Below, one piece after another: positions 2,388 to 63,345 of a stretch of 64,000 nucleotides of DNA (position 1 is its first letter; each line of letters opens with the position of its first letter). A program made the position numbers and the translations under genes. The notes under the pieces were generated by a model. That model was not told the DNA's origin. It worked only from the letters and a program-made list of their open reading frames with translations, and searched no databases. This DNA is from an uncultured Gammaproteobacteria bacterium. Its GTDB lineage: Bacteria; Patescibacteriota; Patescibacteriia; UBA1558; UBA10009. Location of the stretch: positions 3,425 through 67,424 of the forward strand of contig CAZPMS010000006.1 of assembly GCA_964588165.1 (NCBI GenBank), in the 5' to 3' direction.

Positions 2388-2510
2388 TGAAAAAATAACA
2401 CCAATAACACACGATGCTCACGAATGGCTCACAGATAGCGCGAGGATATATGTGCGCTATTAGTGTAATATCAGTGAGCAACAGTATTATTAGTGATTAT
2501 TCTGTTACTT
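2388..2510. repeat. intergenic element R, copy 1 (second copy at 47975..48095)
   Basis: Shares aataacac(ac)gaatgctc.c plus a ~50-nt block gtgcgctattagtgtWWtatcMgtRagcaacagtRttattagtKatt with 47975..48095. Contains TTATTAGTG direct repeats. Confidence 0.55.
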
Positions 2511-5075
2511 ATTAGCAGTGTCCTGCGAAAGCTTCATCCTTTCCAAAATCTCCTGTTCTACAATATTCCTGTCTCGGCCGTACTTTAAGCGCGAAGCTTC
2601 TTTAACTTTAAAAACGATTGATTTATCACCAGGCTTTGGCGGATAAGTTTTAATGTTAAAAGCCGGCACGTTCTGGTTATCTATTAATAATTTTAGATAG
2701 GCGTTAAACTTAGGAATATTTATTAAATCATATTCATTAAAAACAGGGTTAAACTGTTTAGCCACTAGTTCGGCATCATCCGGGCCTATCCTAAAGGAAG
2801 CCATTGTACCTACATTGCCAAAAACAGAATCCCTGATAGAAGTATCGTTGCCTTTTACCAGCTGGCCCACATATTGGTGCGCCACAGTTAAACTTAATTT
2901 ATATTTTCTGGCTTCTGATAAAATTATAGAAATGCTTTCGGTAATGAAATTTTGGAACTCATCTATATATAAATAATAATCGTGCCGCTTTTCTTCTGGC
3001 AATTCTACTCTGGAGAGGGCGGATATTAGAATCTTGCCAACAACTACCATGCCCAATAAATTTGCGGACATATCACCAATGGTCCCTTTGGCCAGTTTAA
3101 TTAGCAAAATCTTTTTCTTGTCCATTACTTCTCTAAAATTAAAAGAACTTTTTTGCTGGGCAATAATCGGCCTTAATAAATCGCTGGAGACAAATGGAGT
3201 TAATTTACTGGTGATATAAGGAACCATATTAGCCAATGATGCTTCGCCGCCGGCTTTTTCTGCCTCTTTCTCCCAAAAATCCCTTACCACCGGATTTACA
3301 CATTTAGAAAGCTTGTATCTCCTAAAATTAGGGTCGGCTAAAACCTTGGGTACTTCCAATAAAGTTGAGCCGGACACAGGATCTTCCATCATTAGCAGCA
3401 TGGCATTACGCATATACTGTTCAAACATTGGGCCACCGGTGGCTTTAAGGTCGTAGAGCTTATCAAAAATATTTATCATTTCGTTTATCACGAAAGTTTT
3501 TTGTTCCGGCGTGCTAAACTCCAGCATATTAAGCCCGATAGGCCTCTTGGTATCAGCTGGATCAAACAAAATTACATCGTCTACTCTGCCTTCGGGGATA
3601 TGCTCCATTACTGTTTCTATTAAATCTCCGTGGGGATCTATAACGCAAACGCCTTGGTTATTTTTAATGTCTTGGATTATCATGTTGGACATAAAAACAG
3701 ATTTACCGGTACCGGACTTGCCAATTATATACATATGCCTTAAGCGGTCCGAACTTTTAATTCTTATTGGCGCTTTTATTCCCCGATATAAATTCTCTCC
3801 CAAAATAAGGCCCTCTTTGGGTAAATTAAGAGGCGGCGTGGCCTTCCTGGCTTCTAACCAATTTATATTAGGTGTTTCTGAAGAAGGCAAAGGCAAGTGC
3901 CATAGGCTGGCCATTTCTTCAGCATTTAAAATTAAACTTTTTTTTGGAATAAAACTTCTATGGATAAAATTGGAGATCAATTTGGGAACTTTAATAAATT
4001 TTGCTTTTTTAAATCCATTGCCATATTCATAAATATTAAACTGAGAAAAAGCATTAATAATATTTTCTAAATAAGCCTCGGCCTTTTGCCTGTTTGGAGC
4101 AGAAACCACTACCCTTATGTTTGCTTCCATGCCTGCCTTGCTGGTTTTTTCTTCAATACCTTTTACCACCTCTGCTTCCATGGGAGAAAGCATTCTTCTT
4201 TCATCTGCTTCTTCTATATTTTTAGAAGCATCCTTTTTAGTTTTAAAAAAGCTTAAAGTGCCAACCACAGCGTTGGTTAGCTTATCAAAAATATTGCCTA
4301 AGCCTGCTTTCCTTAAAGCTACACTTAATTTTTTACCCTGTTGCATTTCTCTTGCTACAATTACTCCTTTGCGATGCCAGCTTTTATAAGCAGACCTAGC
4401 CACCAGCTGAATGGCTGCTCCTGATTCTTCACCTATTTTTGAAAAAGCATTGGTTAAAGCATTTAACGGATCGCTATCAGACTTTTTGTAAGTTTTAATT
4501 GGAAAAATAAAATCTCTGCCAAACTTTAAATAACTGCCAACCACCACGCCCTGGGCAGAAAAAATATTATAGTCTTCTAACTCCTCTATCTGTGCAAAAG
4601 GGTAAGAAGCATGGATTTGCTGTTCTAGGGTATCTTTTAAATAATCAGGAATGGCTACATAAAAATTAATCTTGCCATTTTGGGTTACGATTTCTACAGA
4701 AAAATGGTCTGATCTGCCAAAGATCCAGCTCTTTGTCCCTCTCTGGGCTTTAAGGCCGCCTAAAACAGAAAAAATGTTTTCCGCTACACCTATTTGTTCT
4801 TGGATTGTTTGGGGGGAATCATCGGCACCTTCTTTTTTTAAATTTTCTTTAGGCACGGTAATGAGCAAAATTTTCATTTTTAAAGCAGAAGGAACCTTAT
4901 TGCTTTTGGCTAAAAAACTTCTAACAATTAAAAAGGCGGTTATTAAAACCACCAACAAGATAAATATTAAAATAAAAGCTAAAAACCAAGTATTTTCCAA
5001 AAGGGCATTAGCCTGGGCAGTAAAAGGCGAATTTGACTCTATAACTATTTGCAAGGCAAACAAAGTTAAATACAT
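2505..5075 (-). CDS. membrane-anchored VirD4/TraG/TraD-like coupling-protein ATPase (FtsK/HerA superfamily), 856 aa
   Basis: N-terminal transmembrane helices; Walker A IIGKSGTGKS; Walker B YLYIDEFQNF; a long C-terminal domain as in the type IV secretion coupling-protein / DUF87 family. Confidence 0.55.
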   Translation of the reverse strand: MYLTLFALQIVIESNSPFTAQANALLENTWFLAFILIFILLVVLITAFLIVRSFLAKSNKVPSALKMKILLITVPKENLKKEGADDSPQTIQEQIGVAENIFSVLGGLKAQRGTKSWIFGRSDHFSVEIVTQNGKINFYVAIPDYLKDTLEQQIHASYPFAQIEELEDYNIFSAQGVVVGSYLKFGRDFIFPIKTYKKSDSDPLNALTNAFSKIGEESGAAIQLVARSAYKSWHRKGVIVAREMQQGKKLSVALRKAGLGNIFDKLTNAVVGTLSFFKTKKDASKNIEEADERRMLSPMEAEVVKGIEEKTSKAGMEANIRVVVSAPNRQKAEAYLENIINAFSQFNIYEYGNGFKKAKFIKVPKLISNFIHRSFIPKKSLILNAEEMASLWHLPLPSSETPNINWLEARKATPPLNLPKEGLILGENLYRGIKAPIRIKSSDRLRHMYIIGKSGTGKSVFMSNMIIQDIKNNQGVCVIDPHGDLIETVMEHIPEGRVDDVILFDPADTKRPIGLNMLEFSTPEQKTFVINEMINIFDKLYDLKATGGPMFEQYMRNAMLLMMEDPVSGSTLLEVPKVLADPNFRRYKLSKCVNPVVRDFWEKEAEKAGGEASLANMVPYITSKLTPFVSSDLLRPIIAQQKSSFNFREVMDKKKILLIKLAKGTIGDMSANLLGMVVVGKILISALSRVELPEEKRHDYYLYIDEFQNFITESISIILSEARKYKLSLTVAHQYVGQLVKGNDTSIRDSVFGNVGTMASFRIGPDDAELVAKQFNPVFNEYDLINIPKFNAYLKLLIDNQNVPAFNIKTYPPKPGDKSIVFKVKEASRLKYGRDRNIVEQEILERMKLSQDTANK

Positions 5076-6668: not shown

Positions 6669-6741
6669 TCTTGATTAATTAAATATTGTTATATTAAAAA
6701 AGCCGTCCCGGATAAAACCGAAGGGCGGTTTTTAATTTTAA

Positions 6742-6778
6742 TCTACTCACTACAACCTACTCACTAAATACAACTATC
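6742..6778. repeat. T-family repeat, copy 3, overlapping the 3' end of ORF 6757..7173
   Basis: tctactcactacaacctactcactaaatacaactatc. The last 7 codons of the minus-strand ORF (EIVVFSE) are encoded by it. Confidence 0.5.
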
Positions 6779-7173
6779 TCCTCATTAGTTTCTTCCAACA
6801 TATACCTTAAAGTATATACTTGGCCGTCGGACCAATAATAATAAGAAATATTTTCTGAAGCTGATGGATCTTGAGGAACTTCACCTAAAGCATTAACTAA
6901 AGCTTCATAACCATTGCTGGCTTCATCATTTTGGAAAGGAAAATTGTTATTTTGGCTATTATACTCTGTTAACTTGTTTTGAACAGCTTGAATATCTTCT
7001 TTTCTCTTAATATCTCTTTGTTTTACCAATTCTTTTTCATGATCTATGCCAGCCATAACTCCAGTACTAACCAAACCGATAATAGCTAAAGCTAACGGAA
7101 TAACTAAGATAACAGCACCTTTTTTATCTCGCCATGAGTAAATTTGAGAAGCGGATTTATTAGTTAAATTCAT
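6757..7173 (-). CDS. hypothetical membrane-anchored protein (138 aa)
   Basis: Single N-terminal transmembrane helix (VILVIPLALAIIGLVSTGVMAGI); no domain recognised. Confidence 0.45.
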   Translation of the reverse strand: MNLTNKSASQIYSWRDKKGAVILVIPLALAIIGLVSTGVMAGIDHEKELVKQRDIKRKEDIQAVQNKLTEYNSQNNNFPFQNDEASNGYEALVNALGEVPQDPSASENISYYYWSDGQVYTLRYMLEETNEEIVVFSE

Positions 7174-7269
7174 ATTTTATTAGCTATATTTATATAGGTA
7201 ACTGAGGCATTATACTCTTTCTAAGAAAATCGTCAAGTTATCCTTGAAGTTAATTAAAATACATCCACG

Positions 7270-7396: not shown

Positions 7397-8260
7397 ATGA
7401 GAAGAAGGTGGATAAAAATTGACGGTACTGATACCGTTATCCGCGGTAAAACGGTAACTTTGAATTTAGAGTTACCGAGTGAATTCCAAAACGTTCACAG
7501 TCGTGATTTGGTGATAAACTGTGATGAAGGAAATGTACTGATTTGTGAAAGGGATGGTATTCACATCGCACCGACCATTGAAGTTTTTCCTGATACTCCT
7601 GATGTTCTTACTTTGGAAGTTAAGGGTAAGCTCATTCATCAACCAACAACAAGGACTGATTCTGCAAAGGAAACCGGCAGAGGAGATCCTTACAAAGTTG
7701 GCGAGCCACAGGTGGAACCGATTTTCGCCGATCCTGATCCGGAAGCTGAAGAAGAAGCAGAACTGGAACAGATTGGTGAAAGAATTACTATCACCCAAGA
7801 AATGCCGGTATACGAAACCACTGAAATCCATCACTTTGAGGCTGAAGAAAATTATTCTGCACGCTTTACTTTCAGGGTGATTGATTCTCGGCCGCTGATC
7901 AAACGTAACGAACTCACTGAGCTTCGGTTTGAGCTACCTGATGGTTTCGGCAAAATCAATGAACATCATCTACCAAAGATTTTGGGAAAGGGCGCCTACG
8001 TTACCGAGTGGCAACAGATAGGCCAAGCCTTAACTGTTTCGGTGAAGACCAAAAAGTCTTCACCCGAGGAAATTACTCTGCGGGTTCGCGGCATGTGTGA
8101 AGGCGAACATACTGAGGAATTCTTCAAAATTGATGTAGAGCCGGAAACTGAAAAGGTTAAGAGAAAAACTCTTATAGCCTTGGCAATACTTCTGCTGATA
8201 GCTGCCAGCTTTGTTTCGGGCATATACATTTCTACTCTTTTCCCTCTGTTATTTCAGTAG
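7397..8260 (+). CDS. hypothetical tail-anchored protein, GC-rich orphan (287 aa)
   Basis: ORF with GAGAGG ribosome-binding site. Acidic soluble domain followed by a single C-terminal transmembrane helix (LIALAILLLIAASFVSGIYI). GC-richer than context. Confidence 0.55.
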   Translation: MRRRWIKIDGTDTVIRGKTVTLNLELPSEFQNVHSRDLVINCDEGNVLICERDGIHIAPTIEVFPDTPDVLTLEVKGKLIHQPTTRTDSAKETGRGDPYKVGEPQVEPIFADPDPEAEEEAELEQIGERITITQEMPVYETTEIHHFEAEENYSARFTFRVIDSRPLIKRNELTELRFELPDGFGKINEHHLPKILGKGAYVTEWQQIGQALTVSVKTKKSSPEEITLRVRGMCEGEHTEEFFKIDVEPETEKVKRKTLIALAILLLIAASFVSGIYISTLFPLLFQ

Positions 8261-8276
8261 ACCAAGTTAATTTCAT

Positions 8277-8312
8277 TCCGTCGGTTAACACTAATAACCG
8301 GCGGTTTTTTAT
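8277..8312 (+). terminator. intrinsic terminator after ORF 7397..8260
   Basis: ccgtcggttaacactaataaccggcgg stem-loop followed by ttttttat. Confidence 0.5.
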
Positions 8313-8343
8313 TTAAAAAAACTTAAAAATAAAAAATAGTAGA

Positions 8344-8408
8344 TAGATATCCGCGGACTATCAGTGATTAATCAGTGATCGTTCCGCGAATATCAGTGAA
8401 TTATCTAT
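8344..8408 (+). promoter_or_regulatory. phased array of ATCCGCG / ATCAGTG(A) heptamers (four to five units)
   Basis: atATCCGCGgactATCAGTGAttaATCAGTGAtcgttccgcgaatATCAGTGAattATCTATG upstream of the promoter at 8416. Confidence 0.5.
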
Positions 8409-8415
8409 GAAAAAC

Positions 8416-8444
8416 TTGACAAAATCAATAAATTATGCTAAATT
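8416..8444 (+). promoter_or_regulatory. sigma70-like promoter TTGACA-17-TAAATT
   Basis: ttgacaaaatcaataaattatgctaaatt; same architecture as 14238..14266. Confidence 0.5.
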
Positions 8445-8515
8445 ACAATGTTAAAAATGTTGTTGAACATTGACAAAAAAACGCTAAACATAGACAAAAC
8501 AAAGGAGTACTGAAA

Positions 8516-10882
8516 ATGGCTACCACCGCAAAAGAAGTAGCTGGCGCAGCCACTGCTACCTCAGCTGCCGCAGCCAGAGAACAATTCCGTTTGGAACTGT
8601 GGCAAGTTTTCCGCGACATTCTTATCGGCAAAGACAAGTGGGTTGATGAAGTTGCCAGAACCCATTACGAAAACCAATTCAAGGAACAGTTTTCGGAGAA
8701 ATACGACCTACTTCTGAAAATGCTTCATCCCGACAACCTAAGTACTACCGACCAGCATTGCCTGGATATGGTGGCCTTGGAACATGCCAAGTTGGCCGAT
8801 AAATCTTTGCACGAAAAGGATACGGCTAAGCTCATACCAGGGATGTTTAAAATCTTCTGCGACAAGTTGGAAGAAGTTATTGACTTGGCTACCGAAGGTG
8901 ATGAGTTTGACGTCATCAAAGCGCACACACTGCTCCGGGACAAACGCTGGATCGGTCAGGGCTTCTGGGCTCAAAGGCTAAAGGAAAACATGGGTGAAAT
9001 TCTCAAGCTGGGTTGGATTTCTGAAGGCCTGAGAAGATTTATCCAATCTCCTATCGTTCATGACTTCATGGAAGGAGCTGAACAGCCTTCCATCGATTTC
9101 TTTGAATGGGCCCAGCAGCATTACAACCTCGCAGCCAAAATACGCAGCGGAGCACCCAGTAATCGCCGTTACAGCAACAACCCCTTCAAAAACTTTTTTG
9201 TAGGGCTGCAGTTGATGATTGGTGTTGCTTGGAACTATCTGATGGTAGGCTTGGGCAAGGTGAACAAGTTAAGGCAACAGAATTGGCACAGGATTGGCAA
9301 AAGGACCTTCTGGACAACCATAATTGTTCTGGGTGTGGTCATTGCTTTCCTGATACTGCTGGGATTAGGAATCCACAACAGCTACTTCAAAAGTACCAAC
9401 TACCTTTGGCTTATTGCGACTGCTGGAATTCTACTGTTCATCATCTTTGCTACACTCAAGATTATTGAGGCTGCACTGGGATTGGCCATCTTCACGGTAC
9501 GCTTGGCTTTTGCTGTTATAGCTAGGCCGTCCCTCTGGACCGTTGAACAAGGCGGTAAGTTTATCTGGCAAGTTGGTACTTGGCCAATTGAATTTGGCTT
9601 TGACGCTATAACCGACACCTTTAAGGGGCTATTAATGTTCTTAGGGGTTGATATTGAGGACATTGAACGGTTAAGCGACAGAAAATTCGAACTGACTGAA
9701 GCTCAGAAATCTGCTTGGGGAGATTTAAGTAAACGAACAGAAGACTTGATGAAAGGCGCCCGCCAAACCAGTATTTTCATCACTGTCGGCTTCAAGTATT
9801 TTGCGGCGCTGATAACTTCCACTTCTTTCCTGATCTTGGCCAAATGGCAGTTTTCTGGCGTAGACTCCAGTGCGGTTTTGAACAATCCGGTTTTTGCTCT
9901 GCTGATTCTTTTCCTGCTGGGCTCGCTTTTCACCCATTTTGGAATCCGTGAATATCAGGCAAGAATTGCTAAAGCTACCGGCTTAGATGACAAAAAGCGC
10001 TCCTGGCGAACAGTTAACCGGATTGCTTTTGCTTGCCTTGTTCTGCTGATTCTGGCTGAATGGCGATTTGAAACCGTCACTAACGTCTGGTACTACAATG
10101 CCAGGCAATCAGCAGCCATAACCGAACACGCAAACCAAGAAAGGAGGCTTAAAACTGCGATTTGGGAAAAAAATCGCAGTGCAACAATTCATCGTGGAGC
10201 AACTGTATTTTTGGCAGAAACCGATACAGAAAACGATGATGAGTCTTACATCGTCATAACCGACTCAACTTTCAGCCGGCCAAATCCGAATGTGGTTTAT
10301 GTGGTAAAACCTGCCCTTGAGCAAAACGGCCAGGTATTTACTATCTACAACCCCATTGACCAAAATGGCATCAGGCAAGCAAGCCTGCAATACGCTGTTT
10401 TGGCTCAATATCTGGATCAGGTTACTCCAAACGAGGCAGCCCGCTTGCTGGCTACCAAAACTGAGGCAAAGCCATCATTAATGCCTAGCTCCATTACTTA
10501 CAATCCGAGCAAAGGCATGGCAGTGCTTGGGTATGTTAACACCGATGATGTTCTTTATCTGGATCCTGTCCAACTGTCACTACTTAGCTGTCCTGAAGAA
10601 AGCGATATTGGACTGAAAGGTACCCATGGTACACCGCGTAGCCGCCATGAAGATTGGCCTGAAGAATTCGTTGATCAGCGCATGCGGCTTGGCGCCCTGT
10701 TGGTGAAATTACCAGCTTATGGTTGGCAACCTTTGTACCAAGCCGAGTCATTCAACATCCGTGGCAGCGGAACAGCCATGGTCTGCGTTAATACGCGGCG
10801 TGGGCTTTTTGGCCTTAACGAAGGAGGAATGGTAGATATTGCTATCAGGCTGGAAACCTATGCCGAAATGGCACAACGTTAA
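8516..10882 (+). CDS. large polytopic membrane protein of unknown function, GC-rich orphan (788 aa)
   Basis: AAGGAG ribosome-binding site. An alpha-helical N-terminal domain of about 225 aa, then about 7 predicted transmembrane helices in two clusters, then a C-terminal soluble domain of about 270 aa. No recognisable family. Confidence 0.6.
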   Translation: MATTAKEVAGAATATSAAAAREQFRLELWQVFRDILIGKDKWVDEVARTHYENQFKEQFSEKYDLLLKMLHPDNLSTTDQHCLDMVALEHAKLADKSLHEKDTAKLIPGMFKIFCDKLEEVIDLATEGDEFDVIKAHTLLRDKRWIGQGFWAQRLKENMGEILKLGWISEGLRRFIQSPIVHDFMEGAEQPSIDFFEWAQQHYNLAAKIRSGAPSNRRYSNNPFKNFFVGLQLMIGVAWNYLMVGLGKVNKLRQQNWHRIGKRTFWTTIIVLGVVIAFLILLGLGIHNSYFKSTNYLWLIATAGILLFIIFATLKIIEAALGLAIFTVRLAFAVIARPSLWTVEQGGKFIWQVGTWPIEFGFDAITDTFKGLLMFLGVDIEDIERLSDRKFELTEAQKSAWGDLSKRTEDLMKGARQTSIFITVGFKYFAALITSTSFLILAKWQFSGVDSSAVLNNPVFALLILFLLGSLFTHFGIREYQARIAKATGLDDKKRSWRTVNRIAFACLVLLILAEWRFETVTNVWYYNARQSAAITEHANQERRLKTAIWEKNRSATIHRGATVFLAETDTENDDESYIVITDSTFSRPNPNVVYVVKPALEQNGQVFTIYNPIDQNGIRQASLQYAVLAQYLDQVTPNEAARLLATKTEAKPSLMPSSITYNPSKGMAVLGYVNTDDVLYLDPVQLSLLSCPEESDIGLKGTHGTPRSRHEDWPEEFVDQRMRLGALLVKLPAYGWQPLYQAESFNIRGSGTAMVCVNTRRGLFGLNEGGMVDIAIRLETYAEMAQR

Positions 10883-14084: not shown

Positions 14085-14180
14085 ATTTTTATTATTAATT
14101 ATTAATAATTGATGATTAATGACTTATGATCATACTTATAATTAATTGATCATAAATCATAGTCCATAAATTAATTTCAA

Positions 14181-32034: not shown

Positions 32035-32130
32035 TGGCAGGGATTTGCCCCGCTTTTCGTGAAAGGCGGGATAAAAACCCAGACCAACGGTTTTGGACCC
32101 AGCCCTTCGCGAAGGGCTGGGTGGAGACCC
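32035..32130 (-). pseudogene. partial copy of the tRNA-Trp 3' half interrupted by two GC-rich hairpins
   Basis: Minus strand reads GGTCTCCA[cccagcccttcgcgaagggctgggtcc]AAAACCGTTGGTCTGGGTT[tttatcccgcctttcacgaaaagcgggg]CAAATCCCTGCCA. It matches positions ~29-76 of the adjacent tRNA-Trp and has no 5' half. Confidence 0.6.
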
Positions 32131-32148
32131 TCAAAAATCATATTATTT

Positions 32149-32223
32149 TGGCAGGAGCGCTAGGATTTGAACCCAGACCAACGGTTTTGGAGACCGTCAT
32201 GCTACCATTGACACCACGCTCCC
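32149..32223 (-). tRNA. tRNA-Trp (anticodon CCA)
   Basis: GGGAGCGTGGTGTCAATGGTAGCATGACGGTCTCCAAAACCGTTGGTCTGGGTTCAAATCCTAGCGCTCCTGCCA; cloverleaf with anticodon loop CTCCAAA; CCA encoded. Confidence 0.85.
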
Positions 32224-34103: not shown

Positions 34104-34179
<76 letters not shown>

Positions 34180-36139: not shown

Positions 36140-36162
36140 AATATGATGATTGAAAACTGTTG

Positions 36163-36186
36163 ATTGATGATTGATGAATAATGATT
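36163..36186. repeat. leader motif TTGATGAATAATGATT, one of three exact copies
   Basis: Identical 16-mer at 36166, 42101 and 47829, each within about 30 nt upstream of a minus-strand start codon (fba, HD hydrolase, rluB). Confidence 0.5.
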
Positions 36187-36223
36187 AAAAACTAATCAAT
36201 CATTAATTTTTAATTATTAGTTA

Positions 36224-42088: not shown

Positions 42089-42123
42089 GATTTAATAATT
42101 GATGAATAATGATTCATGACTGA

Positions 42124-43506
42124 TTATTTAATCTTTATCCCTAATTCTTTAAGTTGGTCTTTATCCACTTCCGATGGTGAATCCATCAATGGATCTCTAT
42201 TATCAGAAGTTTTTGGAAAAGCCATTACTTCTCTTATGCTGGTTTCGCCCGCTAAAATTGCGATTAATCTATCTAGGCCAAAAGCAATACCTCCATGAGG
42301 CGGAACACCATATTTGAAAGCCTCTAAAAGATGTCCAAACTTATCTTTAATTTCCTTATCTTTATGGCCTAAAACTTCAAAAATTTTATAAAGAATTTTA
42401 GGATCAGAAGTTCTAATAGAGCCGCCGGCAATTTCTTGGCCGTTTAAGGCTAAATCATATTGTAGGGCCCTAACATCTTTTAAGTCACCTTTTTCTACTT
42501 TATCTAAATCTTCGGAATTAATAGCGGTAAAAGGATGATGAGCTGCACCCCAACGCTTATCGCCTTCTTTATATTCAAACATCGGAAAATCAGTTACCCA
42601 AACAAAGGCTAATTCATTATCATCTTCTTTGTTTTTTCTAACATCTGGCTTGTCAGACTTATACTTTTCTATAGCTTCTTTATGTGTCATTCTAGAAATA
42701 CTCATTTTGGCTTCTGGCTTAACTTTGGCAACAACTGACTTTATCAATTTTTCTATCAAAGAAATAATTTCTTTTTGATTTACAAAGCTCATTTCCATAT
42801 CCAGTTGAGTAAATTCCGCTTGCCTATCGCCTCTTTGGTCTTCATCTCTAAAACATCTAACTATTTGAAAATATTTTTCCATCCCGGCAATCATTAACAT
42901 CTGTTTGTACTGTTGTGGGCTTTGAGGCAAAGCATAAAAATTTCCTTTAAAATTTCTTGAAGGAACTAAAAAATCTCTTGCGCCTTCGGGTGTAGACTTA
43001 GAAAGAAATGGGGTTTCTATTTCTAAAAAATCTTCTTTATAAAAGAATTCTCTAATAGTTTTAATAACTTCGTGCCTTAATTTAATATTTTTCTGCATTC
43101 TTTCATGCTTTAAGTCTAAATATCTGTATTTAAGCCTAAGTTCTTCGTTAGCTTGCCTATCTTCATTATCAATCTCAAATGGCGGAGTTACTGCTTCTGA
43201 TAAGATTTTGACTTGCTTAGCCAATACCTCAACTGTACCGGTTGGTATATCTTTATTAACCTGCTTATCACCTCTTTTATTGACGGTGCCGTTTATTTCT
43301 AAAACATATTCAGGTTTTATGTTCTTGATAATTTCGGCTGAATCTTTATCCAGTTCTGATGGCACCAGGACAACCTGAACAATGGCAGATTTATCTCTAA
43401 GGTCTACAAACATTATCTTGCCCATTTTCCGGACGCTATGCGCCCAGCCGGCCAGCAAAACTTCTTTATTAATTTGTTTAGTTGTTTCTATATTATTTAT
43501 TTTCAT
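42124..43506 (-). CDS. aspS: aspartyl-tRNA synthetase, short (archaeal/eukaryotic-type) form
   Basis: 460 aa; N-terminal OB fold; class II motifs FRDE, QLD.E and GGIAFGLDRL. Confidence 0.85.
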   Translation of the reverse strand: MKINNIETTKQINKEVLLAGWAHSVRKMGKIMFVDLRDKSAIVQVVLVPSELDKDSAEIIKNIKPEYVLEINGTVNKRGDKQVNKDIPTGTVEVLAKQVKILSEAVTPPFEIDNEDRQANEELRLKYRYLDLKHERMQKNIKLRHEVIKTIREFFYKEDFLEIETPFLSKSTPEGARDFLVPSRNFKGNFYALPQSPQQYKQMLMIAGMEKYFQIVRCFRDEDQRGDRQAEFTQLDMEMSFVNQKEIISLIEKLIKSVVAKVKPEAKMSISRMTHKEAIEKYKSDKPDVRKNKEDDNELAFVWVTDFPMFEYKEGDKRWGAAHHPFTAINSEDLDKVEKGDLKDVRALQYDLALNGQEIAGGSIRTSDPKILYKIFEVLGHKDKEIKDKFGHLLEAFKYGVPPHGGIAFGLDRLIAILAGETSIREVMAFPKTSDNRDPLMDSPSEVDKDQLKELGIKIK

Positions 43507-44309: not shown

Positions 44310-45599
44310 CTACGGTTTTAATCTGGTAATCATTCTAGGAAATGGAATTGTTTCCCTAACATGTTTAGTACCGCAGATCCAGCCAACCAGCCTTTCTAAG
44401 CCAACGCCGAATCCGGAATGAGGCACACTACCGTATTTTCTTAAATCCAAATACCATTGGAAATCTTTTATAGGCAATTTGTGTTCTTTAACTCTTTTGA
44501 GTAAAGTGTCATAATCATCCTCACGTTGACTGCCGCCGATAATTTCACCAAAACCTTCTGGGGCTATCATATCATCACAAAGTGCCAACTTGCCGGACTT
44601 ATCGCGCTTCATATAAAAAGCTTTAATGGCTGCCGGCCACTTATCTACAAACACCGGCACATCTGAATCTTTGGTTAATAAAGTCTCATCATCGCCGCCT
44701 AAATCCTCGTTATCTTTAATATCTGATCCAAGTTTTTGAAGTTTTTTTACAGCCTCTTTGTGTGTCATTCTTACAAATGGAGCTTTGATTTTTTTAAGCT
44801 TAGCAGTATCCCGTTCTAAAATCTCTAATTCCTTTTTATTTTCTGAAAGTACCTTTTTAACAATATATGAGACTAACTCTTCCTGGATCTTCATATTTTC
44901 TTCATGTTCAACAAAGGCTGCTTCTGCGTCCATCATCCAAAATTCTGTAAGATGCCTGCGGGTTTTGGATTTCTCGGCTCTAAACACTGGGCCAAAGTCA
45001 AAAACCTTGCCTAACGAAAATATGGCCGCTTCTATATATAACTGTCCTGATTGCGAAAGGTAAGCTTTGCCTAGGTCAAAATAATCCAGTTCAAATAAAG
45101 TTGTGGTGCCCTCACAGGCGTTGGGAGTTAAAATCGGCGAATCAATCTTAATATAGCCCTGGTTATTTAAAAATTCGTAAATTGAGTTTATGATGGTGTT
45201 CCTAACTTTTTGGATGGCCCACTGTTTGTTTGAACGTAGCCATAAATGACGATTATCCAATAAAAAATCCGGTCCATGCTCTTTTTTGGAAATCGGATAT
45301 TCTTCAGCCACCTGGACTAATTCAATATCGCTGACTTGGAGTTCATATTCTTCCTTTTTTGGATGTTTACTTATTTTTCCAGATAATATAGCTGACGATT
45401 CTTGAGTGATTTTCTCAACTTCCTTCCATACCTTGCCAGATACTTCCTTTTTATTAACAATGGCCTGAATAAAACCAGAACCGTCTCTAACCTGTAAAAA
45501 ATAAAGGCTTCCGGAAGATCGGAAGTTATAAATCCAGCCCTGAATTTTTGCTTCTTTACCCTCAAATTCAGAAGCTTTCGTAATTGTAATTTTTTCCAT
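44310..45599 (-). CDS. asnS: asparaginyl-tRNA synthetase
   Basis: 429 aa; N-terminal OB fold; class IIb motifs FRAEKSKTRRHLTEFWMMDAE and GFGVGLERL. Confidence 0.85.
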   Translation of the reverse strand: MEKITITKASEFEGKEAKIQGWIYNFRSSGSLYFLQVRDGSGFIQAIVNKKEVSGKVWKEVEKITQESSAILSGKISKHPKKEEYELQVSDIELVQVAEEYPISKKEHGPDFLLDNRHLWLRSNKQWAIQKVRNTIINSIYEFLNNQGYIKIDSPILTPNACEGTTTLFELDYFDLGKAYLSQSGQLYIEAAIFSLGKVFDFGPVFRAEKSKTRRHLTEFWMMDAEAAFVEHEENMKIQEELVSYIVKKVLSENKKELEILERDTAKLKKIKAPFVRMTHKEAVKKLQKLGSDIKDNEDLGGDDETLLTKDSDVPVFVDKWPAAIKAFYMKRDKSGKLALCDDMIAPEGFGEIIGGSQREDDYDTLLKRVKEHKLPIKDFQWYLDLRKYGSVPHSGFGVGLERLVGWICGTKHVRETIPFPRMITRLKP

Positions 45600-45736
45600 A
45601 AGTTGTAGATATTATACTATTTTTTGACTATTTTGTGAAGTTAATGATTGTATTGACTAAACTAAGTTAACGTGTAAAAATATCCCTATTGTACATTACA
45701 AAACATACATCGTTTAACTAGCTGGAGATTAGAACC

Positions 45737-46354
45737 ATGAAGAAAGTTTTTGGAGTCTTAGCCGTTCTTTTATGCTTTCTGCTGTTGGTAGCTACCTTTG
45801 CCTTCCCATTCTGGAACGATAATCGGTTGGCCGTCAAAGAGCGCAGCGAAGCCATTGTAGCTGCTCAGGAATTCACCGTTGAAGGCCAATTGCTGGCTAC
45901 CGTTCACTATTCACTGGAAGGTATTGAAACCAAGGGAGAATTTAACCAGACTTTCATTGAACTGGTAAACCAACAAATTCCCTCCTACAACGACGCCGGC
46001 CAACGGCTGATAACCTATTGCTATATAGCCGGCCAAGAATCGTCTTCACAGCAAGAAATCTTATTGGCCAAACAGAACCTTAAGCCTTGCCAGAATTCGA
46101 TTATGATATTTTTGGCAAATTCCGAAGGGAAAACAAATTGCTACTTGATTATTGATAATTATTGGTCGAGCAACATGCCTGCAATTATGGGAATGTTTAT
46201 GAAGCCGAATACTGGACCGCTAACAGAGACTTTTACAGCTTTGATGATTGGCGCAACAATAAAAATTCCTTCAACTGTTTTATTGACCGGTGGCTGGATT
46301 CCCAATAACCTGGTGTATTTCTCCGATGAACAAATCCCTTATTTAACCAGTTAA
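45737..46354 (+). CDS. hypothetical secreted protein, GC-rich orphan (205 aa)
   Basis: Signal-peptide-like N-terminus, GGAGA ribosome-binding site, GC-richer composition. Confidence 0.5.
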   Translation: MKKVFGVLAVLLCFLLLVATFAFPFWNDNRLAVKERSEAIVAAQEFTVEGQLLATVHYSLEGIETKGEFNQTFIELVNQQIPSYNDAGQRLITYCYIAGQESSSQQEILLAKQNLKPCQNSIMIFLANSEGKTNCYLIIDNYWSSNMPAIMGMFMKPNTGPLTETFTALMIGATIKIPSTVLLTGGWIPNNLVYFSDEQIPYLTS

Positions 46355-46371
46355 TTATTTGACCACCTCTA

Positions 46372-46410
46372 TCCGCCAAGCTACTTATGCCTGGCGGTTT
46401 TTATTTTTTT
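46372..46410 (+). terminator. intrinsic terminator after ORF 45737..46354
   Basis: ccgccaagctacttatgcctggcgg followed by tttttattttttt. Confidence 0.55.
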
Positions 46411-46427
46411 ATAAAACTTTTAATTTC

Positions 46428-46558
46428 TTCTGAAGTTAATTCCCGCCAATTTCCAGGCGGTAAATCTTCCATTTTAATGCTACCAACTCTGATTCTTTTC
46501 AAACTGACCACTTCATAGCCTATATTTTCTACCATCCGCCTTATTTGCCTATTCCAGC
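46428..46558 (-). pseudogene. duplicated 3'-terminal fragment of rluB (~130 bp, ~95% identical to 47178..47308)
   Basis: ttaattcccgccaatttccaggcggtaaatcttccattttaatgctaccaactctgattcttttcaaactga.cac.tcatagcctatattttctaccatccgccttatttgcctattccagcc, then unrelated sequence. Confidence 0.75.
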
Positions 46559-46572
46559 CCTATTGACAATAT

Positions 46573-46601
46573 TTTTAATATATGATATTATTTATTATTC
46601 G
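46573..46601 (+). promoter_or_regulatory. sigma70-like promoter TTGACA-17-TATTAT
   Basis: ttgacaatatttttaatatatgatattat upstream of ORF 46683..47096. Confidence 0.45.
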
Positions 46602-46682
46602 ATCTTTCTTTATTGACCATTTAGTACTAATAGTACTAAACTTCAAAAGAGTGAAAAGTGCCAAACCACAGTGAGGGAAATT

Positions 46683-47096
46683 ATGAGGTATCCGAACTCT
46701 TTTCTGAAGAATGGTCCGCTTTATGTGGTCATTCTAGCTGCTCTCGTTTTCGTAACGGGGTTTGTTCAGTACAACAGCGACAGCCATCACTTCAGCATTC
46801 AGCACGAAACTTTCGTCGCAGGCGACAACCAGGCCTCATTGATCGGCTACACAGTTGCTGATCTGGAAAATTATGGGCAACGTTACCTTGAAGCCAAGTA
46901 TCCTGGGACATCCCAACTGCCACGCTTCGTAAACGTGGCATTAGGAATGATACCTGTACTACTTCTTCCACCAAACATTTTTTGGTCGCCAGCAATCATT
47001 CTTACATTTATGCTATGCGGAATCTGCGGAATATTGCTTACCGGAATAATTTCTAACCGCAATATGAATTGCCTCAAACCAACTTTATCACAATAA
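46683..47096 (+). CDS. hypothetical membrane protein, GC-rich orphan (137 aa from ATG 46683; GTG 46671 possible)
   Basis: GAGGGA ribosome-binding site; two to three transmembrane helices; GC-richer; sits between the rluB fragment and intact rluB. Confidence 0.5.
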   Translation: MRYPNSFLKNGPLYVVILAALVFVTGFVQYNSDSHHFSIQHETFVAGDNQASLIGYTVADLENYGQRYLEAKYPGTSQLPRFVNVALGMIPVLLLPPNIFWSPAIILTFMLCGICGILLTGIISNRNMNCLKPTLSQ

Positions 47097-47125
47097 ACAA
47101 TGAGAGGTACAAATTTTCTAAACGA

Positions 47126-47821
47126 TCATCCTCTGAAAGCCTCGGCAAATGCTGAGGCTTTTTCTTTTTCTGTAAGATTACGCCACTTACCGGGCGGTAA
47201 ATCTTCCATTTTAATGCTACCAACTCTGATTCTTTTCAAACTAAGCACCTCATAGCCTATATTTTCTACCATCCGCCTTATTTGCCTATTCCAGCCTTGG
47301 TGGACTACAATTCGTAATTTATTATCCGAAACTCTTAAAATCTTATCGGCCTTGGCAATTCCCTCCCTCAACTTGATGCCCTGTCTCAATTTTTTAATTG
47401 ACTGTTCATTAATTACTTGTTCAGTTTCTACTAAATATTCTTTTTCATGTTTGAACTTGGGATGCATTATTTTATTGGCAAAGTCGCCGTCATTAGTAAG
47501 GATAATCAAACCGGATGATTCTACATCTAACCTGCCAACCGGATAAATTCTTTCTTTAATATCAATCTTTTCTATAATATTATCTCTTTTTGTCTCATCA
47601 GTTGTGCAAATAACACCAACCGGTTTATGGTAAGCAATGTAAATTGATGACTGATGATTAATGATTAATTTTTTTCCGACCTTAACTTCATCAGTCTCAT
47701 CAACCTGGCTACCAAGTTCGGCTATCTCATCATTAATAAAAACCTTGTTTTGTTTTATTAGTTCATCAGCTTGCCTGCGTGAACAGTGTCCGCTTTCGGC
47801 TAAATATTTGTTTATTCTCAT
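47126..47821 (-). CDS. rluB: S4-domain pseudouridine synthase (RluB/RsuA family)
   Basis: N-terminal S4 domain (MRINKYLAESGHCSRRQADELIK) and the catalytic GRLD motif (YPVGRLDVESSGL). Confidence 0.8.
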   Translation of the reverse strand: MRINKYLAESGHCSRRQADELIKQNKVFINDEIAELGSQVDETDEVKVGKKLIINHQSSIYIAYHKPVGVICTTDETKRDNIIEKIDIKERIYPVGRLDVESSGLIILTNDGDFANKIMHPKFKHEKEYLVETEQVINEQSIKKLRQGIKLREGIAKADKILRVSDNKLRIVVHQGWNRQIRRMVENIGYEVLSLKRIRVGSIKMEDLPPGKWRNLTEKEKASAFAEAFRG

Positions 47822-47840
47822 ATTTAATGATTGATGAATA

Positions 47841-47928
47841 ATGATTAATGAATTATCTGTGAGTAATCCCTACCTTCCGGCAGGCAGGCGTGGGTCATCT
47901 GGTGGGTAATCAGTAAATATCTGTGACT
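47841..47928. promoter_or_regulatory. degenerate ATCTGTG / ATCAGTA array
   Basis: attATCTGTGag...tcATCTGGTgggtaATCAGTAaatATCTGTGacttATCCGTGttgaccc. Confidence 0.4.
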
Positions 47929-47974: not shown

Positions 47975-48095
47975 TTTTTTCACATATAACACGAATGCTC
48001 GCTATTCTTTTACAGATTACACACTAATCCGTGCGCTATTAGTGTTTTATCCGTAAGCAACAGTGTTATTAGTTATTTACGCATAAATGAAAAAG
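47975..48095. repeat. intergenic element R, copy 2
   Basis: See copy 1 at 2388..2510. Confidence 0.55.
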
Positions 48096-48150: not shown

Positions 48151-48645
48151 TTACTTTTTCAGCTTCTTGCCGAAGCCTTCATTGTCAAGAAATGTGAGCG
48201 CTTCAATCCAGAGAATGGCCTTAGCCATTTCTTGTGCGACACACTTCACGTTTCGACCACCAGGACCGTAAGTGAATTTACTGACACCCAGCGGGTATTG
48301 AGTACTGAAAGAGGCAATAATACCCTCAGTCATTTTCTGTTTTCCGCTGGTCTCGATAATTTGAGTTACGATTGGCCACTTAAAGTCATCACGGGTATGG
48401 TTGGATACCACTGCCCCGACTACCATCCCAAGGTTCCAGTTGACATCGCGTAGATGATCAAGCCCTTTGCCCTCAGCAAGCCACTCGTTGACCACCGTTT
48501 TTACTATTGGCCAGCTCCATTGCCAGCAACCAACTCCCACCAGAAGCAAATCACGATTGTCATGTACTCGAATGCCAGCCTTAGAAAACTTTATAAAGTT
48601 TTCTTTTAAAGCCCTTTCCTCTCGATTCTTCTCTTTGAAAGTCAT
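48151..48645 (-). CDS. hypothetical protein, GC-rich orphan (164 aa)
   Basis: AGGAGGAGAAG ribosome-binding site; strongly GC-richer; no recognised domain. Confidence 0.5.
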   Translation of the reverse strand: MTFKEKNREERALKENFIKFSKAGIRVHDNRDLLLVGVGCWQWSWPIVKTVVNEWLAEGKGLDHLRDVNWNLGMVVGAVVSNHTRDDFKWPIVTQIIETSGKQKMTEGIIASFSTQYPLGVSKFTYGPGGRNVKCVAQEMAKAILWIEALTFLDNEGFGKKLKK

Positions 48646-48703
48646 CTTCTCCTCCTAACAATAAGGGGATTATGCTGCGCCACCATTAGCACAGTCTGTT
48701 TAT

Positions 48704-48732
48704 AATGTAACATATTTTTATATTTATGTCAA
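48704..48732 (-). promoter_or_regulatory. sigma70-like promoter TTGACA-17-TACATT (minus strand)
   Basis: The reverse complement of 48727-48732 is TTGACA, the spacer is 17 nt, and the reverse complement of 48704-48709 is TACATT. Confidence 0.4.
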
Positions 48733-48811
48733 GTTTTACTGGATATCAAAAAACTCAATAAAATTGAGCCTTTTTTATGGCTGCCGGGGCTGGATTTTCA
48801 CCCCGCCGTAT

Positions 48812-48886
48812 TGGCTGTGGAGACAGGACTCGAACCTGTAACATTCGCATTAACAGTGCGACGTTCTACCATTGAACTACTCCACA
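48812..48886 (-). tRNA. tRNA-Asn (anticodon GTT)
   Basis: TGTGGAGTAGTTCAATGGTAGAACGTCGCACTGTTAATGCGAATGTTACAGGTTCGAGTCCTGTCTCCACAGCCA. Confidence 0.85.
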
Positions 48887-61766: not shown

Positions 61767-62684
61767 GACGATTAATACCATGCCAATGCCCATATTAAAA
61801 ACTCTATACATTTCTTCTTCTGCCACTTCTCCAACTTTTTGGATTAATTTAAAAATTGGCAGTATGTCCCAGGAATGTTTTTTTATCTCAACAGATAAAC
61901 GTTTTGGCAAAACTCTGGGAATATTATCTATAAATCCACCGCCAGTTATATGAGCAATACCGTTTATTTTTTCAACTAAAGGCAAAACTGACTTTACATA
62001 AGATTTATGTGGCATAGCCAACTCTTTGCCTAAACTAAAATTCAGTTCATCAAAATGGCTATCGGCCGTGTAATTATTTGCTTCAAAAAATATCTTTCTA
62101 ATTAAAGATGCGCCGTTAGTATGCATGCCGGATGATGCTAATCCCAGTAAAACATCACCTTCTTTAATTTTTTCACCGGTGATTATTTTATCTTTTTCTA
62201 CAATACCCGTAATACAGCCGGCTACATCATGTTCGCCTTTAACGTAGACTCCCGGCATTTCTGCAGTTTCTCCGCCAATTAAACTGACTCCGTTTTCCAT
62301 GCAGGCTTTGGCCATGCCTGTAACTATTTCTTCTATTTCTTTAGGATCAAGCTTATCGGCAGCTATGTAGTCTAAAAATGTTAAAGGTTTAGCTCCTTGG
62401 CACAAAATGTCATCACAGCAATGGTTAACAATATCCTCACCAACAGTTTCTAGGTTACCAACCATTTTGGCAACTTTAAGCTTAGTGCCTACGCCGTCTA
62501 TGCTTTGGACTAAAATTGGTTGGTTATAATCTTTTAATTGGCTGGCATCATACATGGCTCCAAAGGAACCTAAACCGGTAACCACATTGGCATCAAAAGT
62601 GGCCTTTACTTTATCTTTTATTTTATTTACTGCTTCATTACCGGCATCTATGTTAACACCAGAAGATTTATAACTAATTGACAT
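61647..62684 (-). CDS. purM: phosphoribosylformylglycinamidine cyclo-ligase (AIR synthetase)
   Basis: 345 aa; AIRS and AIRS_C domain motifs. Confidence 0.9.
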   Translation of the reverse strand: MSISYKSSGVNIDAGNEAVNKIKDKVKATFDANVVTGLGSFGAMYDASQLKDYNQPILVQSIDGVGTKLKVAKMVGNLETVGEDIVNHCCDDILCQGAKPLTFLDYIAADKLDPKEIEEIVTGMAKACMENGVSLIGGETAEMPGVYVKGEHDVAGCITGIVEKDKIITGEKIKEGDVLLGLASSGMHTNGASLIRKIFFEANNYTADSHFDELNFSLGKELAMPHKSYVKSVLPLVEKINGIAHITGGGFIDNIPRVLPKRLSVEIKKHSWDILPIFKLIQKVGEVAEEEMYRVFNMGIGMVLIVGADLKSVRSELEKSGEKVFEIGKVVSGKKGADLKSVRII

Positions 62685-62738
62685 ATTTTTTACTTATTAA
62701 AAATATTTTAACACCGGCTTGTCCGCCGAAGCCTTGGC

Positions 62739-62790
62739 GTAGGTGGGCATCAATATTAACGCCTGATGATTTATAATCTATTGACATATT
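62739..62790 (-). pseudogene. duplicated purM start region (~50 bp, ~80% identical to 62641..62692)
   Basis: atgtcaatagattataaatcatcaggcgttaatattgatgcc encodes MSIDYKSSGVNIDA versus the real PurM MSISYKSSGVNIDA; opens a 37-aa ORF ending before the true start. Confidence 0.6.
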
Positions 62791-62847
62791 TTATTTATTA
62801 TATAATATATATTAATTCGTACCTTTAAACCAACGAGGATTAAAAAA

Positions 62848-63345
62848 ATGCGTTTACGCAGCAGTGTTTTTCTAGCTTTATTACTGTTTTTGCTGTTTGG
62901 TTGTGGATTTATGTTTGAAGAACCGGAACAACCGACCTTTGAAGAAACCCTGAATCTAGTCCAACAATATACCTTTGAAGGGACGGTAGAAAAAACAGAA
63001 ATGCCCATATTTGATACCATTATCATATCTGCAAAGTCTGGAGGAAGAATATACACAATAGGGGTAATGAATCCCAACTGGATCTACTATAACCAAATGG
63101 ATCCTATTGCCCAGTTTGAAAACCCCTTTGATTATGAAAATGTTCATAATCTAAAAAATCAGTTAACAACTGGCTCCCGAATCCGTATTGCTATTAATCA
63201 AGCTCTACCAATTGAATGCAGTGTCCCTTTCAGACTAGTTTACGCAAATAATGATAGTATTCCTTATATCGACTATTTCCTCGAAGGTTTTACTATTCCA
63301 GCATATTTTTCTCCAACTGGTATTACTGAAATACCAATTCCTTGA
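62848..63345 (+). CDS. hypothetical lipoprotein (165 aa)
   Basis: Signal peptide with lipobox LLFGC; the only plus-strand ORF in the purine operon region. Confidence 0.5.
   Translation: MRLRSSVFLALLLFLLFGCGFMFEEPEQPTFEETLNLVQQYTFEGTVEKTEMPIFDTIIISAKSGGRIYTIGVMNPNWIYYNQMDPIAQFENPFDYENVHNLKNQLTTGSRIRIAINQALPIECSVPFRLVYANNDSIPYIDYFLEGFTIPAYFSPTGITEIPIP

Follow-up and report, generated by a model that had tools for sequence, protein, structure and literature searches.

The stretch of DNA analysed in this study, hereafter the window, is 64,000 nt long and derives from an uncultured member of the Patescibacteriota (GCA_964588165.1, contig CAZPMS010000006.1, 3,425 to 67,424 of the forward strand). 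The best genome-level relatives of the host are Komeilibacteria-like metagenome-assembled genomes, with 57-59% amino-acid identity. Among the GTDB r232 species representatives, no genome exceeded 90% average nucleotide identity to this population (best match, 59% at the amino-acid level). The window contains a minus-strand gene for an rRNA pseudouridine synthase whose 3' end is present twice, and a GC-rich open reading frame (ORF), designated ORF137, lies on the opposite strand between the two copies. The gene and the parts of the two copies are the following.

47126..47821, minus strand: gene of an RsuA-family rRNA pseudouridine synthase, 231 aa (Pfam S4 and PseudoU_synth_2, NCBIfam).
47193..47296, minus strand: core of the repeat, copy B, joined to the gene and encoding GWNRQIRRMVENIGYEVLSLKRIRVGSIKMEDLPP (BLAST, codon table).
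47126..47192, minus strand: tail B, the C-terminus in use, GKWRNLTEKEKASAFAEAFRG followed by the stop codon (codon table, homologue tails).
46456..46559, minus strand: core of the repeat, copy A, with no gene body (BLAST, sequence).
46401..46455, minus strand: tail A, the displaced C-terminus, GNWRELTSEEIKSFIKK followed by the stop codon (ORF list, alignment with 21 homologues).

The synthase passed the NCBIfam subfamily model of the RsuA family, TIGR00093, with 163 bits (cut-off, 109), and scored 230 bits against RluF (cut-off, 318) and 124 bits against RluB (cut-off, 290), both under the equivalog cut-offs. By these scores it appears nearest to RluF and not to RluB, for which equivalog membership failed. 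An earlier note, made from the DNA letters, had described the end of an rluB gene as duplicated; the repeat indeed includes the final codons of this minus-strand synthase gene, and the name rluB was approximate, since RluF scores higher. A total of 4778 homologues were retrieved, the closest of which (66-69% identity) came from Patescibacteria/Komeilibacteria.

A repeat search of the window revealed one two-copy direct repeat, 46424-46559 versus 47161-47296, with a spacing of 737 and 89% identity over 136 nt. Its core, as delimited by BLAST (46456-46559 versus 47193-47296), was 104 nt long with 97.1% identity (E ~1e-48), which is far beyond chance. The direct repeat announced in the earlier note is therefore real, but the second interval given there, 47178-47308, was off register by 13 nt, and the identity of about 95% was not reproduced: an offset of 750 gave 27/131 matches, a random level, whereas an offset of 737 gave 116/131 (88.5%). 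No third copy was present in the window, and BLAST of either copy returned its partner only, with all remaining matches at chance level. The repeat search detected no terminal inverted repeats at the ends of the insert, and the repeat region folded no better than shuffled sequences (z = +0.69 and -0.60).

A weak 23-nt match at 45623-45645 was considered as a third copy and rejected, as it was at chance level in BLAST and coincides with the conserved promoter of the asparaginyl-tRNA synthetase (AsnRS) gene. The same segment reads SQKIV and a stop in frame, which is the end of the synthase of relative P0003; a remnant of an ancestral tail is not claimed here because the DNA is equally conserved in relative L008, in which it is non-coding.

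The two borders of the duplicated segment were of different kinds. At 46559/46560, the junction was non-homologous, with the identity beyond it (16/42) at background; copy A is immediately preceded by an in-frame TAG, and the -35 box of the first ORF137 promoter begins 4 nt past the end of the repeat. At ~47193/47192, the junction was in register, the two copies aligning codon by codon in frame while the identity fell from 97% to 64%. Alignment with 21 homologues showed that the highly conserved motif GWNRQIRRM starts exactly at the repeat boundary.

The reading frame of the synthase is open through copy B to the stop at 47126-47128. In the 34 codons of the core, one change is synonymous and another exchanges a Leu and a Val codon, whereas 12/33 nt differ in the 11 codons past the core, mostly at third positions, including five synonymous codon pairs (CCC/CCT, GGT/GGA, CGT/CGG, CTT/TTA, and ACA/ACT). 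The contrast between 3 differences in the 102-104-nt core and 12 in the next 33 nt was significant (Fisher p = 2e-6). The identities among copies and relatives were as follows.

Core A versus core B: 99/102 nt identical.
Either core versus any relative: 56-71/102 nt identical.
Tail A versus tail B: 21/33 nt identical (64%).
Tail B versus L088, the closest relative: 26/33 nt identical.
Tail A versus L009: 23/33 nt identical.
Tail A versus L088: 20/33 nt identical.

By these figures, the cores have a very recent common ancestor, and the tails date back to the split between lineages. Tail A is intact, with the family-typical ending EEIKSF, and the KWRNLTEKE of tail B resembles the tails of other lineages (9/10 in P0100; KWRNLSENE in P0003). 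Both tails are thus ordinary pseudouridine-synthase ends of the family type. The family consensus was also tried as a means of naming copy A the native tail, and this was dropped because tail B is likewise a genuine family tail, and the closer of the two to the nearest relative. The displaced fragment at 46401..46535 (44 aa) is annotated as a protein-coding gene in at least 16 public contigs; rather than a gene, it is a pseudogene fragment.

The DNA between the two copies forms a self-contained unit with the following features.

46683..47096, plus strand: ORF137, an orphan membrane-protein ORF of 137 aa with three hydrophobic segments (ORF list, hydropathy).
46563-46591, plus strand: promoter P1, TTGACA-17-TG-TATTAT, with an extended -10 (promoter scan, 11/12 matches).
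46613-46642, plus strand: promoter-like site P2, TTGACC-18-TAAACT (promoter scan).
46621-46639, within the ORF137 promoter region: operator-like perfect 9+1+9 palindrome, TTAGTACTA-A-TAGTACTAA.
47135..47172, plus strand: intrinsic terminator of ORF137 with a 12-bp stem and a T-run, overlapping the synthase end (terminator scan).

Both the consensus promoter and the GC-rich membrane-protein ORF that the earlier note had placed between the copies were confirmed, the former by the P1 site and the latter by the ORF list, the composition, and the three hydrophobic segments. The sequence GAGG is located 8 nt before the ATG of ORF137, and its GC content of 0.44 and third-position GC content (GC3) of 0.46 compare with a GC3 of 0.26-0.35 in host genes. 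Even with 3 mismatches allowed, the window contains no second instance of the palindrome (chance expectation, 0.01). Four matches to it in viral contigs were set aside as chance, as they fall in two unrelated coding sequences. The terminator hairpin (47135-47162) had a DNA folding energy of -15.4 kcal/mol (z = -2.9), and the last ~10 codons and stop of tail B are its reverse complement. From this architecture, ORF137 is predicted to be an independently transcribed, repressor-controlled small membrane protein, the transcript of which would converge on and overlap the last codons of the synthase gene.

ORF137 was found alone among 5.8 billion proteins, and a full HMMER search against 1.84 billion representatives returned one other match, which was repetitive and hydrophobic. 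No family was assigned to it in Pfam, PHROG, PADLOC, or NCBIfam, and the insert DNA had no match in phage or plasmid collections. The single-sequence AlphaFold2 model was of low confidence (predicted local distance difference test score, 57).

Between tail A and the AsnRS gene lies a second reverse-strand cassette, which was delimited as follows.

45737..46354, plus strand: ORF205, an orphan whose N-terminus has a signal or transmembrane segment, GC3 0.47.
46366..46403, plus strand: likely ORF205 terminator, a CCGCCA...TGGCGG hairpin followed by TTTTTATTTTTTT, abutting the tail A stop (read from the sequence).
45611..45639, minus strand: AsnRS promoter, TTCACA-17-TATAAT, conserved in relatives (promoter scan).
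44310..45599, minus strand: AsnRS gene (Pfam; synteny in L008, L009, and L088).

ORF205 had no family match in Pfam, PHROG, PADLOC, or NCBIfam and is preceded by a promoter-like site at 45653-45681. Its terminator hairpin was not listed by the terminator scan because the loop exceeds 8 nt. The last codons of tail A are the reverse complement of the T-run in this terminator, so that each tail abuts the terminator of its own reverse-strand cassette, tail B that of ORF137 and tail A that of ORF205.

Judging from synteny, AsnRS is the ancestral downstream neighbour of the synthase gene. It follows the synthase gene after 87 bp in L008 and after 13 bp in L088, with a similar arrangement in L089, and no ORF lies between them; in L088 and L089, the synthase stop codon is located inside the -10 box of the AsnRS promoter. 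Because the synthase gene stands directly before AsnRS in these relatives, about 1.5 kb (~45650-47125) is lineage-specific here, and the proposal of an insertion at the synthase 3' end is thereby supported. L008, L088, and L089 are without the cassette, and a second synthase 3' end was found in 0/80 other genomes carrying the gene. In L009, the spacer (6733-7257) contains a different GC-rich (47-49%) reverse-strand orphan of 174 aa, and the synthase 3' end is not duplicated. The presence of a different orphan at the same place indicates a recurrent insertion spot rather than one specific element. The C-terminus of the L009 orphan contains a perfect 28-nt tandem repeat (PPQESMAEE twice).

On the other side of the synthase gene, a Germane-domain gene touches it in L008 and L009, whereas in the window a tRNA-Asn gene and the orphan ORF164 (164 aa, GC3 0.48), at 48151-48886, separate the two. 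The synthase gene thus appears as a conserved island between two variable, lineage-specific stretches, and the three orphans ORF137, ORF205, and ORF164 share a GC3 bias (0.46, 0.47, and 0.48, respectively).

At least 14 separate metagenome assemblies (JGI, ENA, and Logan) contributed about twenty contigs with the arrangement, either 100% identical or within 1 nt, and one Logan unitig stops inside the repeat, as expected of a true repeat. The source metagenomes include JGI 3300009375, 3300009374, 3300008627, and 3300009405 and ENA ERZ23499059, ERZ23499079, and ERZ23499057. One further contig, L104 (568 bp, ENA ERZ23498708), agrees with copy A and the flank downstream of it and with 27 nt on the promoter side of the cassette, up to a junction at 46585/46586; past that point, its DNA is unrelated, has 25.6% GC, and contains an open frame of 118 codons. 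This ORF had no homologues, no significant family, and no match in the window or the fetched loci, and a search with a 35-mer specific to L104 returned nothing. L104 may represent another variant of the hot spot or a chimeric contig. In another contig, L105, the foreign ends appear to be chimeric joins with DNA of a high-GC organism.

Taken together, these observations are read here as two alternative synthase 3' ends stacked in tandem by homology-anchored recombination, that is, a 3'-end displacement resembling homology-facilitated illegitimate recombination (HFIR), and we assign to this reading a probability of roughly 0.55. One in-register junction, one non-homologous junction, and foreign DNA between them constitute an HFIR-type signature. 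Classical HFIR was described in natural transformation or conjugation (PMC3240628), duplications made by transformation have been reported (PMC3784515), and natural competence with homologous recombination has been documented experimentally in Patescibacteria, at least in Saccharibacteria (PMC10633639). The alternative offered in the earlier note, in which the cassette carried a gene-derived recombination arm, is favoured by the junctions and the divergence of the tails. Neither the cassette nor the annotated ~46 kb of the window (~1-21 kb and 39-64 kb) yielded a transposase, integrase, or other recombinase domain.

The proposed course of events begins with a population that would have held alternative alleles, each consisting of a tail and a cassette, behind a shared gene core of ~97% identity. 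DNA from a close relative would have brought part of the synthase gene, or AsnRS, as an anchor together with a different tail-and-cassette allele. A homologous in-register crossover in the synthase gene (or, as a mirror image, in AsnRS) would have left the switch from 97% to 64% at ~47193/47192, and an illegitimate joint would have formed between the other end and the beginning of the resident core, 46559/46560. A Campbell-type crossover of a circularised fragment would yield the same topology. Copy B would then have been kept as the working C-terminus, and copy A left as a promoter-less fragment.

Several points weigh against this reading. Classical HFIR usually deletes recipient DNA, and keeping the 104-nt core needs an illegitimate joint downstream of the homologous crossover as well as a donor ~97% identical in the core, both of which are plausible. 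No empty-site allele is on record, the protein clusters of the locus being all singletons at 90% identity; no donor and no closely related strain were found; and a 41-mer of the core had no exact match in the JGI metagenome and IMG/VR contig collections. We infer the history, including the recombination pathway and the donor, from one fixed arrangement, in which either cassette may have arrived last. Furthermore, the cassette is remarkably compact, and the sharing of copy A and 27 nt by L104 could mean a conserved attachment (att) arm.

The last point leads to site-specific integration, a possible though doubtful explanation, in which a tyrosine or serine integrase, whose gene lies elsewhere or has been lost, would have inserted an element at an att site within the synthase 3' end. 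The element would have brought a replacement end for the gene, and what is left would be a 0.7-kb integrase-less remnant or satellite flanked by attL and attR. Such a remnant would resemble a cis-mobilizable element (CIME), a described class of integrase-less derivatives of integrative elements (PMC5704250). It would explain why direct repeats of the target-gene 3' end flank the insert, with the frame preserved by the insert-side copy, and why GWNRQIRRM starts at the repeat boundary, and the promoter palindrome implies a trans-acting DNA-binding protein that is not encoded by the cassette. The AT-rich DNA of L104 past the shared 27 nt is different and truly coding, which is how two elements with one att arm would look; L104 is, however, a single 568-bp contig and may be chimeric. 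The absence of an integrase from the cassette and the annotated window parts argues against this explanation, and an att model does not readily accommodate a 104-nt unstructured block with an anciently diverged tail behind it. Moreover, the 0/80 count in other genomes, the lack of any other occurrence of the cassette DNA or ORF in phage, plasmid, viral, and protein collections, and the different genes and geometries of the other footprints in the window (see below) also weigh against it. The library searched contained no literature linking pseudouridine synthase genes to attB sites.

A self-propagating mini-circle is an unlikely alternative to the stacking of two 3' ends. The 737-bp unit, made up of core, tail B, terminator, ORF137, and promoter, would pop out via the direct repeats and re-enter the synthase gene of any cell by a single RecA crossover in the core, regenerating the duplication at each round; it would thus act as a natural knock-in cassette with a single homology arm. 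In its topology, the locus corresponds exactly to a Campbell insertion, the unit contains no superfluous DNA (the promoter is 4 nt from the end of one arm and the terminator overlaps the other), and recombining cores would stay alike while passenger tails diverge. Nevertheless, neither a circular form nor a second genomic context was found in the protein, metagenome, and viral contig searches, and every sample showed the arrangement in a fixed, clonal form. Small circles are also disfavoured by the linear, single-stranded state of the DNA that is imported in transformation. It seems quite unlikely that the 737-bp unit is a living mobile cassette devoid of an integrase, a single gene with promoter, operator, and terminator of its own that has the replacement 3' end as its only homing arm and spreads by pop-out and pop-in among naturally competent Patescibacteria; if true, the unit and the purM and tRNA footprints described below would reveal a general homology-arm trafficking of accessory genes in reduced genomes.

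Highly unlikely is a fresh local duplication, i.e., a long target-site duplication or slippage at insertion followed by divergence in place, which was in essence the first proposal of the earlier note (~130 bp of duplicated target). The copies are only 737 bp apart with a 97% identical core, as such an event would leave them, but the divergence is uneven along the repeat (p = 2e-6): the 33 nt that follow the core match at only 21/33, and their changes are mostly of the synonymous type, although one copy is non-functional and random decay would be expected; tail A is nonetheless intact. Tail B is nearer to the tail of another lineage (26/33 with L088) than to tail A. Target duplication is disfavoured because the divergence between the tails equals that between orthologues of separate lineages. 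No terminal inverted repeats were present, and, to our knowledge, 104-136 nt far exceeds any target duplication made by a transposase.

Finally, an assembly artefact, which by the earlier note would have overturned the duplication, is scarcely credible, for although short-read metagenome assemblies can collapse or mis-join repeats and some contigs end near or inside the region, the about twenty contigs, which came from different pipelines, carry the identical sequence across both copies, and the 3 core mismatches and different tails mean that neither copy is a mis-placed duplicate of the other.

Protein-level comparison of the window with itself revealed exactly one further gene-end fragment, that of purM. 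The first 14 codons of purM, together with the 5 nt that precede them, recur 103 bp before the true start (62746-62792 versus 62643-62689, 39/47 nt), and the two copies read MSIDYKSSGVNIDA and MSISYKSSGVNIDA, with 6/8 changes synonymous (p = 0.004). The extra copy has been predicted as a 37-aa ORF; on one side of it is purM and on the other an orphan reverse-strand lipoprotein ORF (62848..63345, 165 aa). This copy is a gene-end fragment of foreign-lineage type, in a geometry unlike that of the synthase gene.

Two tRNA genes of the window are also affected. A resident tRNA-Thr(GGT) is split into segments at 34273-34253 (21 nt) and 34040-33998 (43 nt) around a 212-nt insert, which holds an intact, xenologous tRNA-Thr(GGT) at 34104-34179, and the stems of the inner gene are distinguished from those of the outer one by compensatory changes. 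The outer halves together with the missing 12 nt were recognised by ARAGORN as tRNA-Thr, whereas Rfam and ARAGORN detected only the inner gene in the native sequence. A partial copy of tRNA-Trp (32069-32140, anticodon arm to T arm), 52 nt downstream of the tRNA-Trp gene at 32149-32223, is interrupted by a 24-nt GC-rich palindrome, CCCAGCCCTTCGCGAAGGGCTGGG, with TCCA on either side. The different sites and geometries favour a general recombination process over one site-specific enzyme.

Further observations concern the surroundings of these genes. A tandem 14-nt motif, TAATGATTGATGAA / TAATGATTAATGAA on the plus strand, occurs at 47824-47867, 42092-42135, 36143-36207, and 14088-14129, immediately upstream of several minus-strand gene starts including those of the synthase gene and dnaK, and may be a shared promoter or regulator-binding element. 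The tRNA-Asn gene, the only Rfam family found at 43-50 kb, is only ~3 kb from the AsnRS gene. A 47-nt intergenic repeat (48031-48077 and 2452-2498, 87% identical), at the first site of which an internal inverted repeat spans 48010-48056, lies behind ORF164 upstream of the synthase gene and behind the gene of a DUF87/TrwB-like ATPase. This 856-aa DUF87 ATPase (2505-5075) has weak signatures of TrwB and of a type IV secretion system coupling protein; GC-richer orphan ORFs follow it at 7397-10882, and a P63C-domain gene is located just outside the left end of the window (L091:1-49). A conjugation-like type IV system has been described for Patescibacteria (PMC12102498), and the ATPase and the P63C gene may be part of such a system. 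Contigs L005 and L007 begin exactly at 48028, and L002, L003, and L005 stop exactly at 45267; such shared contig ends hint that the assembly graph branches at strain level near the locus.

Patescibacteria (the Candidate Phyla Radiation) have tiny genomes in which mobile elements are seldom recognised and strain-specific orphan envelope proteins are numerous, and the entry of genes into these genomes is poorly documented. Against this background, the locus offers an acquisition scar at base resolution, with a housekeeping gene as the landing pad and its function kept by a second, anciently diverged tail. The occurrence of several scars in 64 kb suggests homology-anchored, partly illegitimate recombination as a routine route of accessory genes in this lineage, which would fit the natural competence of cultivated relatives. 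On the practical side, displaced fragments are called as tiny ORFs (44 aa here) and can break assemblies. The locus is of value as a well-resolved example and does not reveal new machinery.

Several known systems were compared with the locus. The target-site duplications of insertion sequences and transposons measure ~2-15 bp and are initially identical, whereas the repeat of the synthase gene is 104-136 nt long with 64% identity in its distal 33 nt, inverted repeats are absent, and the sole ORF is an orphan. An integron cassette is likewise a single-ORF unit of ~0.7 kb added at a fixed site with older units pushed downstream, but ORF137, unlike the promoterless ORF of an integron cassette, has its own 11/12 promoter, the repeat lacks the imperfect hairpin into which an attC site folds, and no IntI or attI was seen in the annotated window parts. 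A prophage moron is a unit of promoter, ORF, and terminator with deviant composition, and the self-contained unit described here, with a GC content above that of the host and a small membrane protein, resembles one; its neighbours, however, are housekeeping genes, with no PHROG or phage DNA match nearby.

Phage 21 and e14 at icd, ICESt1/3 at fda, and SCCmec at rlmH integrate at the 3' end of a protein-coding gene, whose end they replace by one of their own. As in these integrative elements and in CIMEs, direct repeats of a gene 3' end are present at the synthase locus, the insert-side copy preserves the gene, and the displaced end lies on the far side. In contrast to them, the insert is ~0.6 kb with one ORF and no integrase, and the repeat consists of a long near-identical block followed by a diverged tail.

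With the products of HFIR, the synthase locus shares an in-register homologous junction, a non-homologous junction, and foreign DNA between them; in HFIR products, the non-homologous junction usually coincides with microhomology of a few nt. Unlike in experimental HFIR, the scar is known here from sequence alone, and the core adjacent to the anchor is kept in both copies.

The 3'-end displacement arrays of rhs, contact-dependent inhibition (CDI), and type VI secretion system (T6SS) genes arise when anchored incoming DNA delivers a new 3' end and a downstream gene and orphans the old end, which is shifted downstream with a portion of the conserved region; HFIR has been proposed for this (Kirchberger et al. 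2017, PMC5361080). The variable tips of such arrays are toxin domains, and behind each lies its cognate immunity gene in the same orientation; C-terminal displacement of the rhs type was reported by Jackson et al. 2009 (PMC2935791), as cited in PMC5361080. The target at the present locus is a housekeeping rRNA pseudouridine synthase with ordinary tails and not toxin domains, and the cassette ORFs lie on the opposite strand with their own promoter and terminator, with no effector-immunity logic and no PADLOC or Pfam match. Similar to those arrays, the displaced orphan 3' fragment, copy A, retains part of the core and lies downstream of the active gene, and two units of tail and cassette stand in tandem, as units do where repeated events stack them. 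The kind of event, homology-facilitated insertion with displacement of a 3' end, is already known, and the locus described here would place it in a housekeeping gene of a Patescibacterium.

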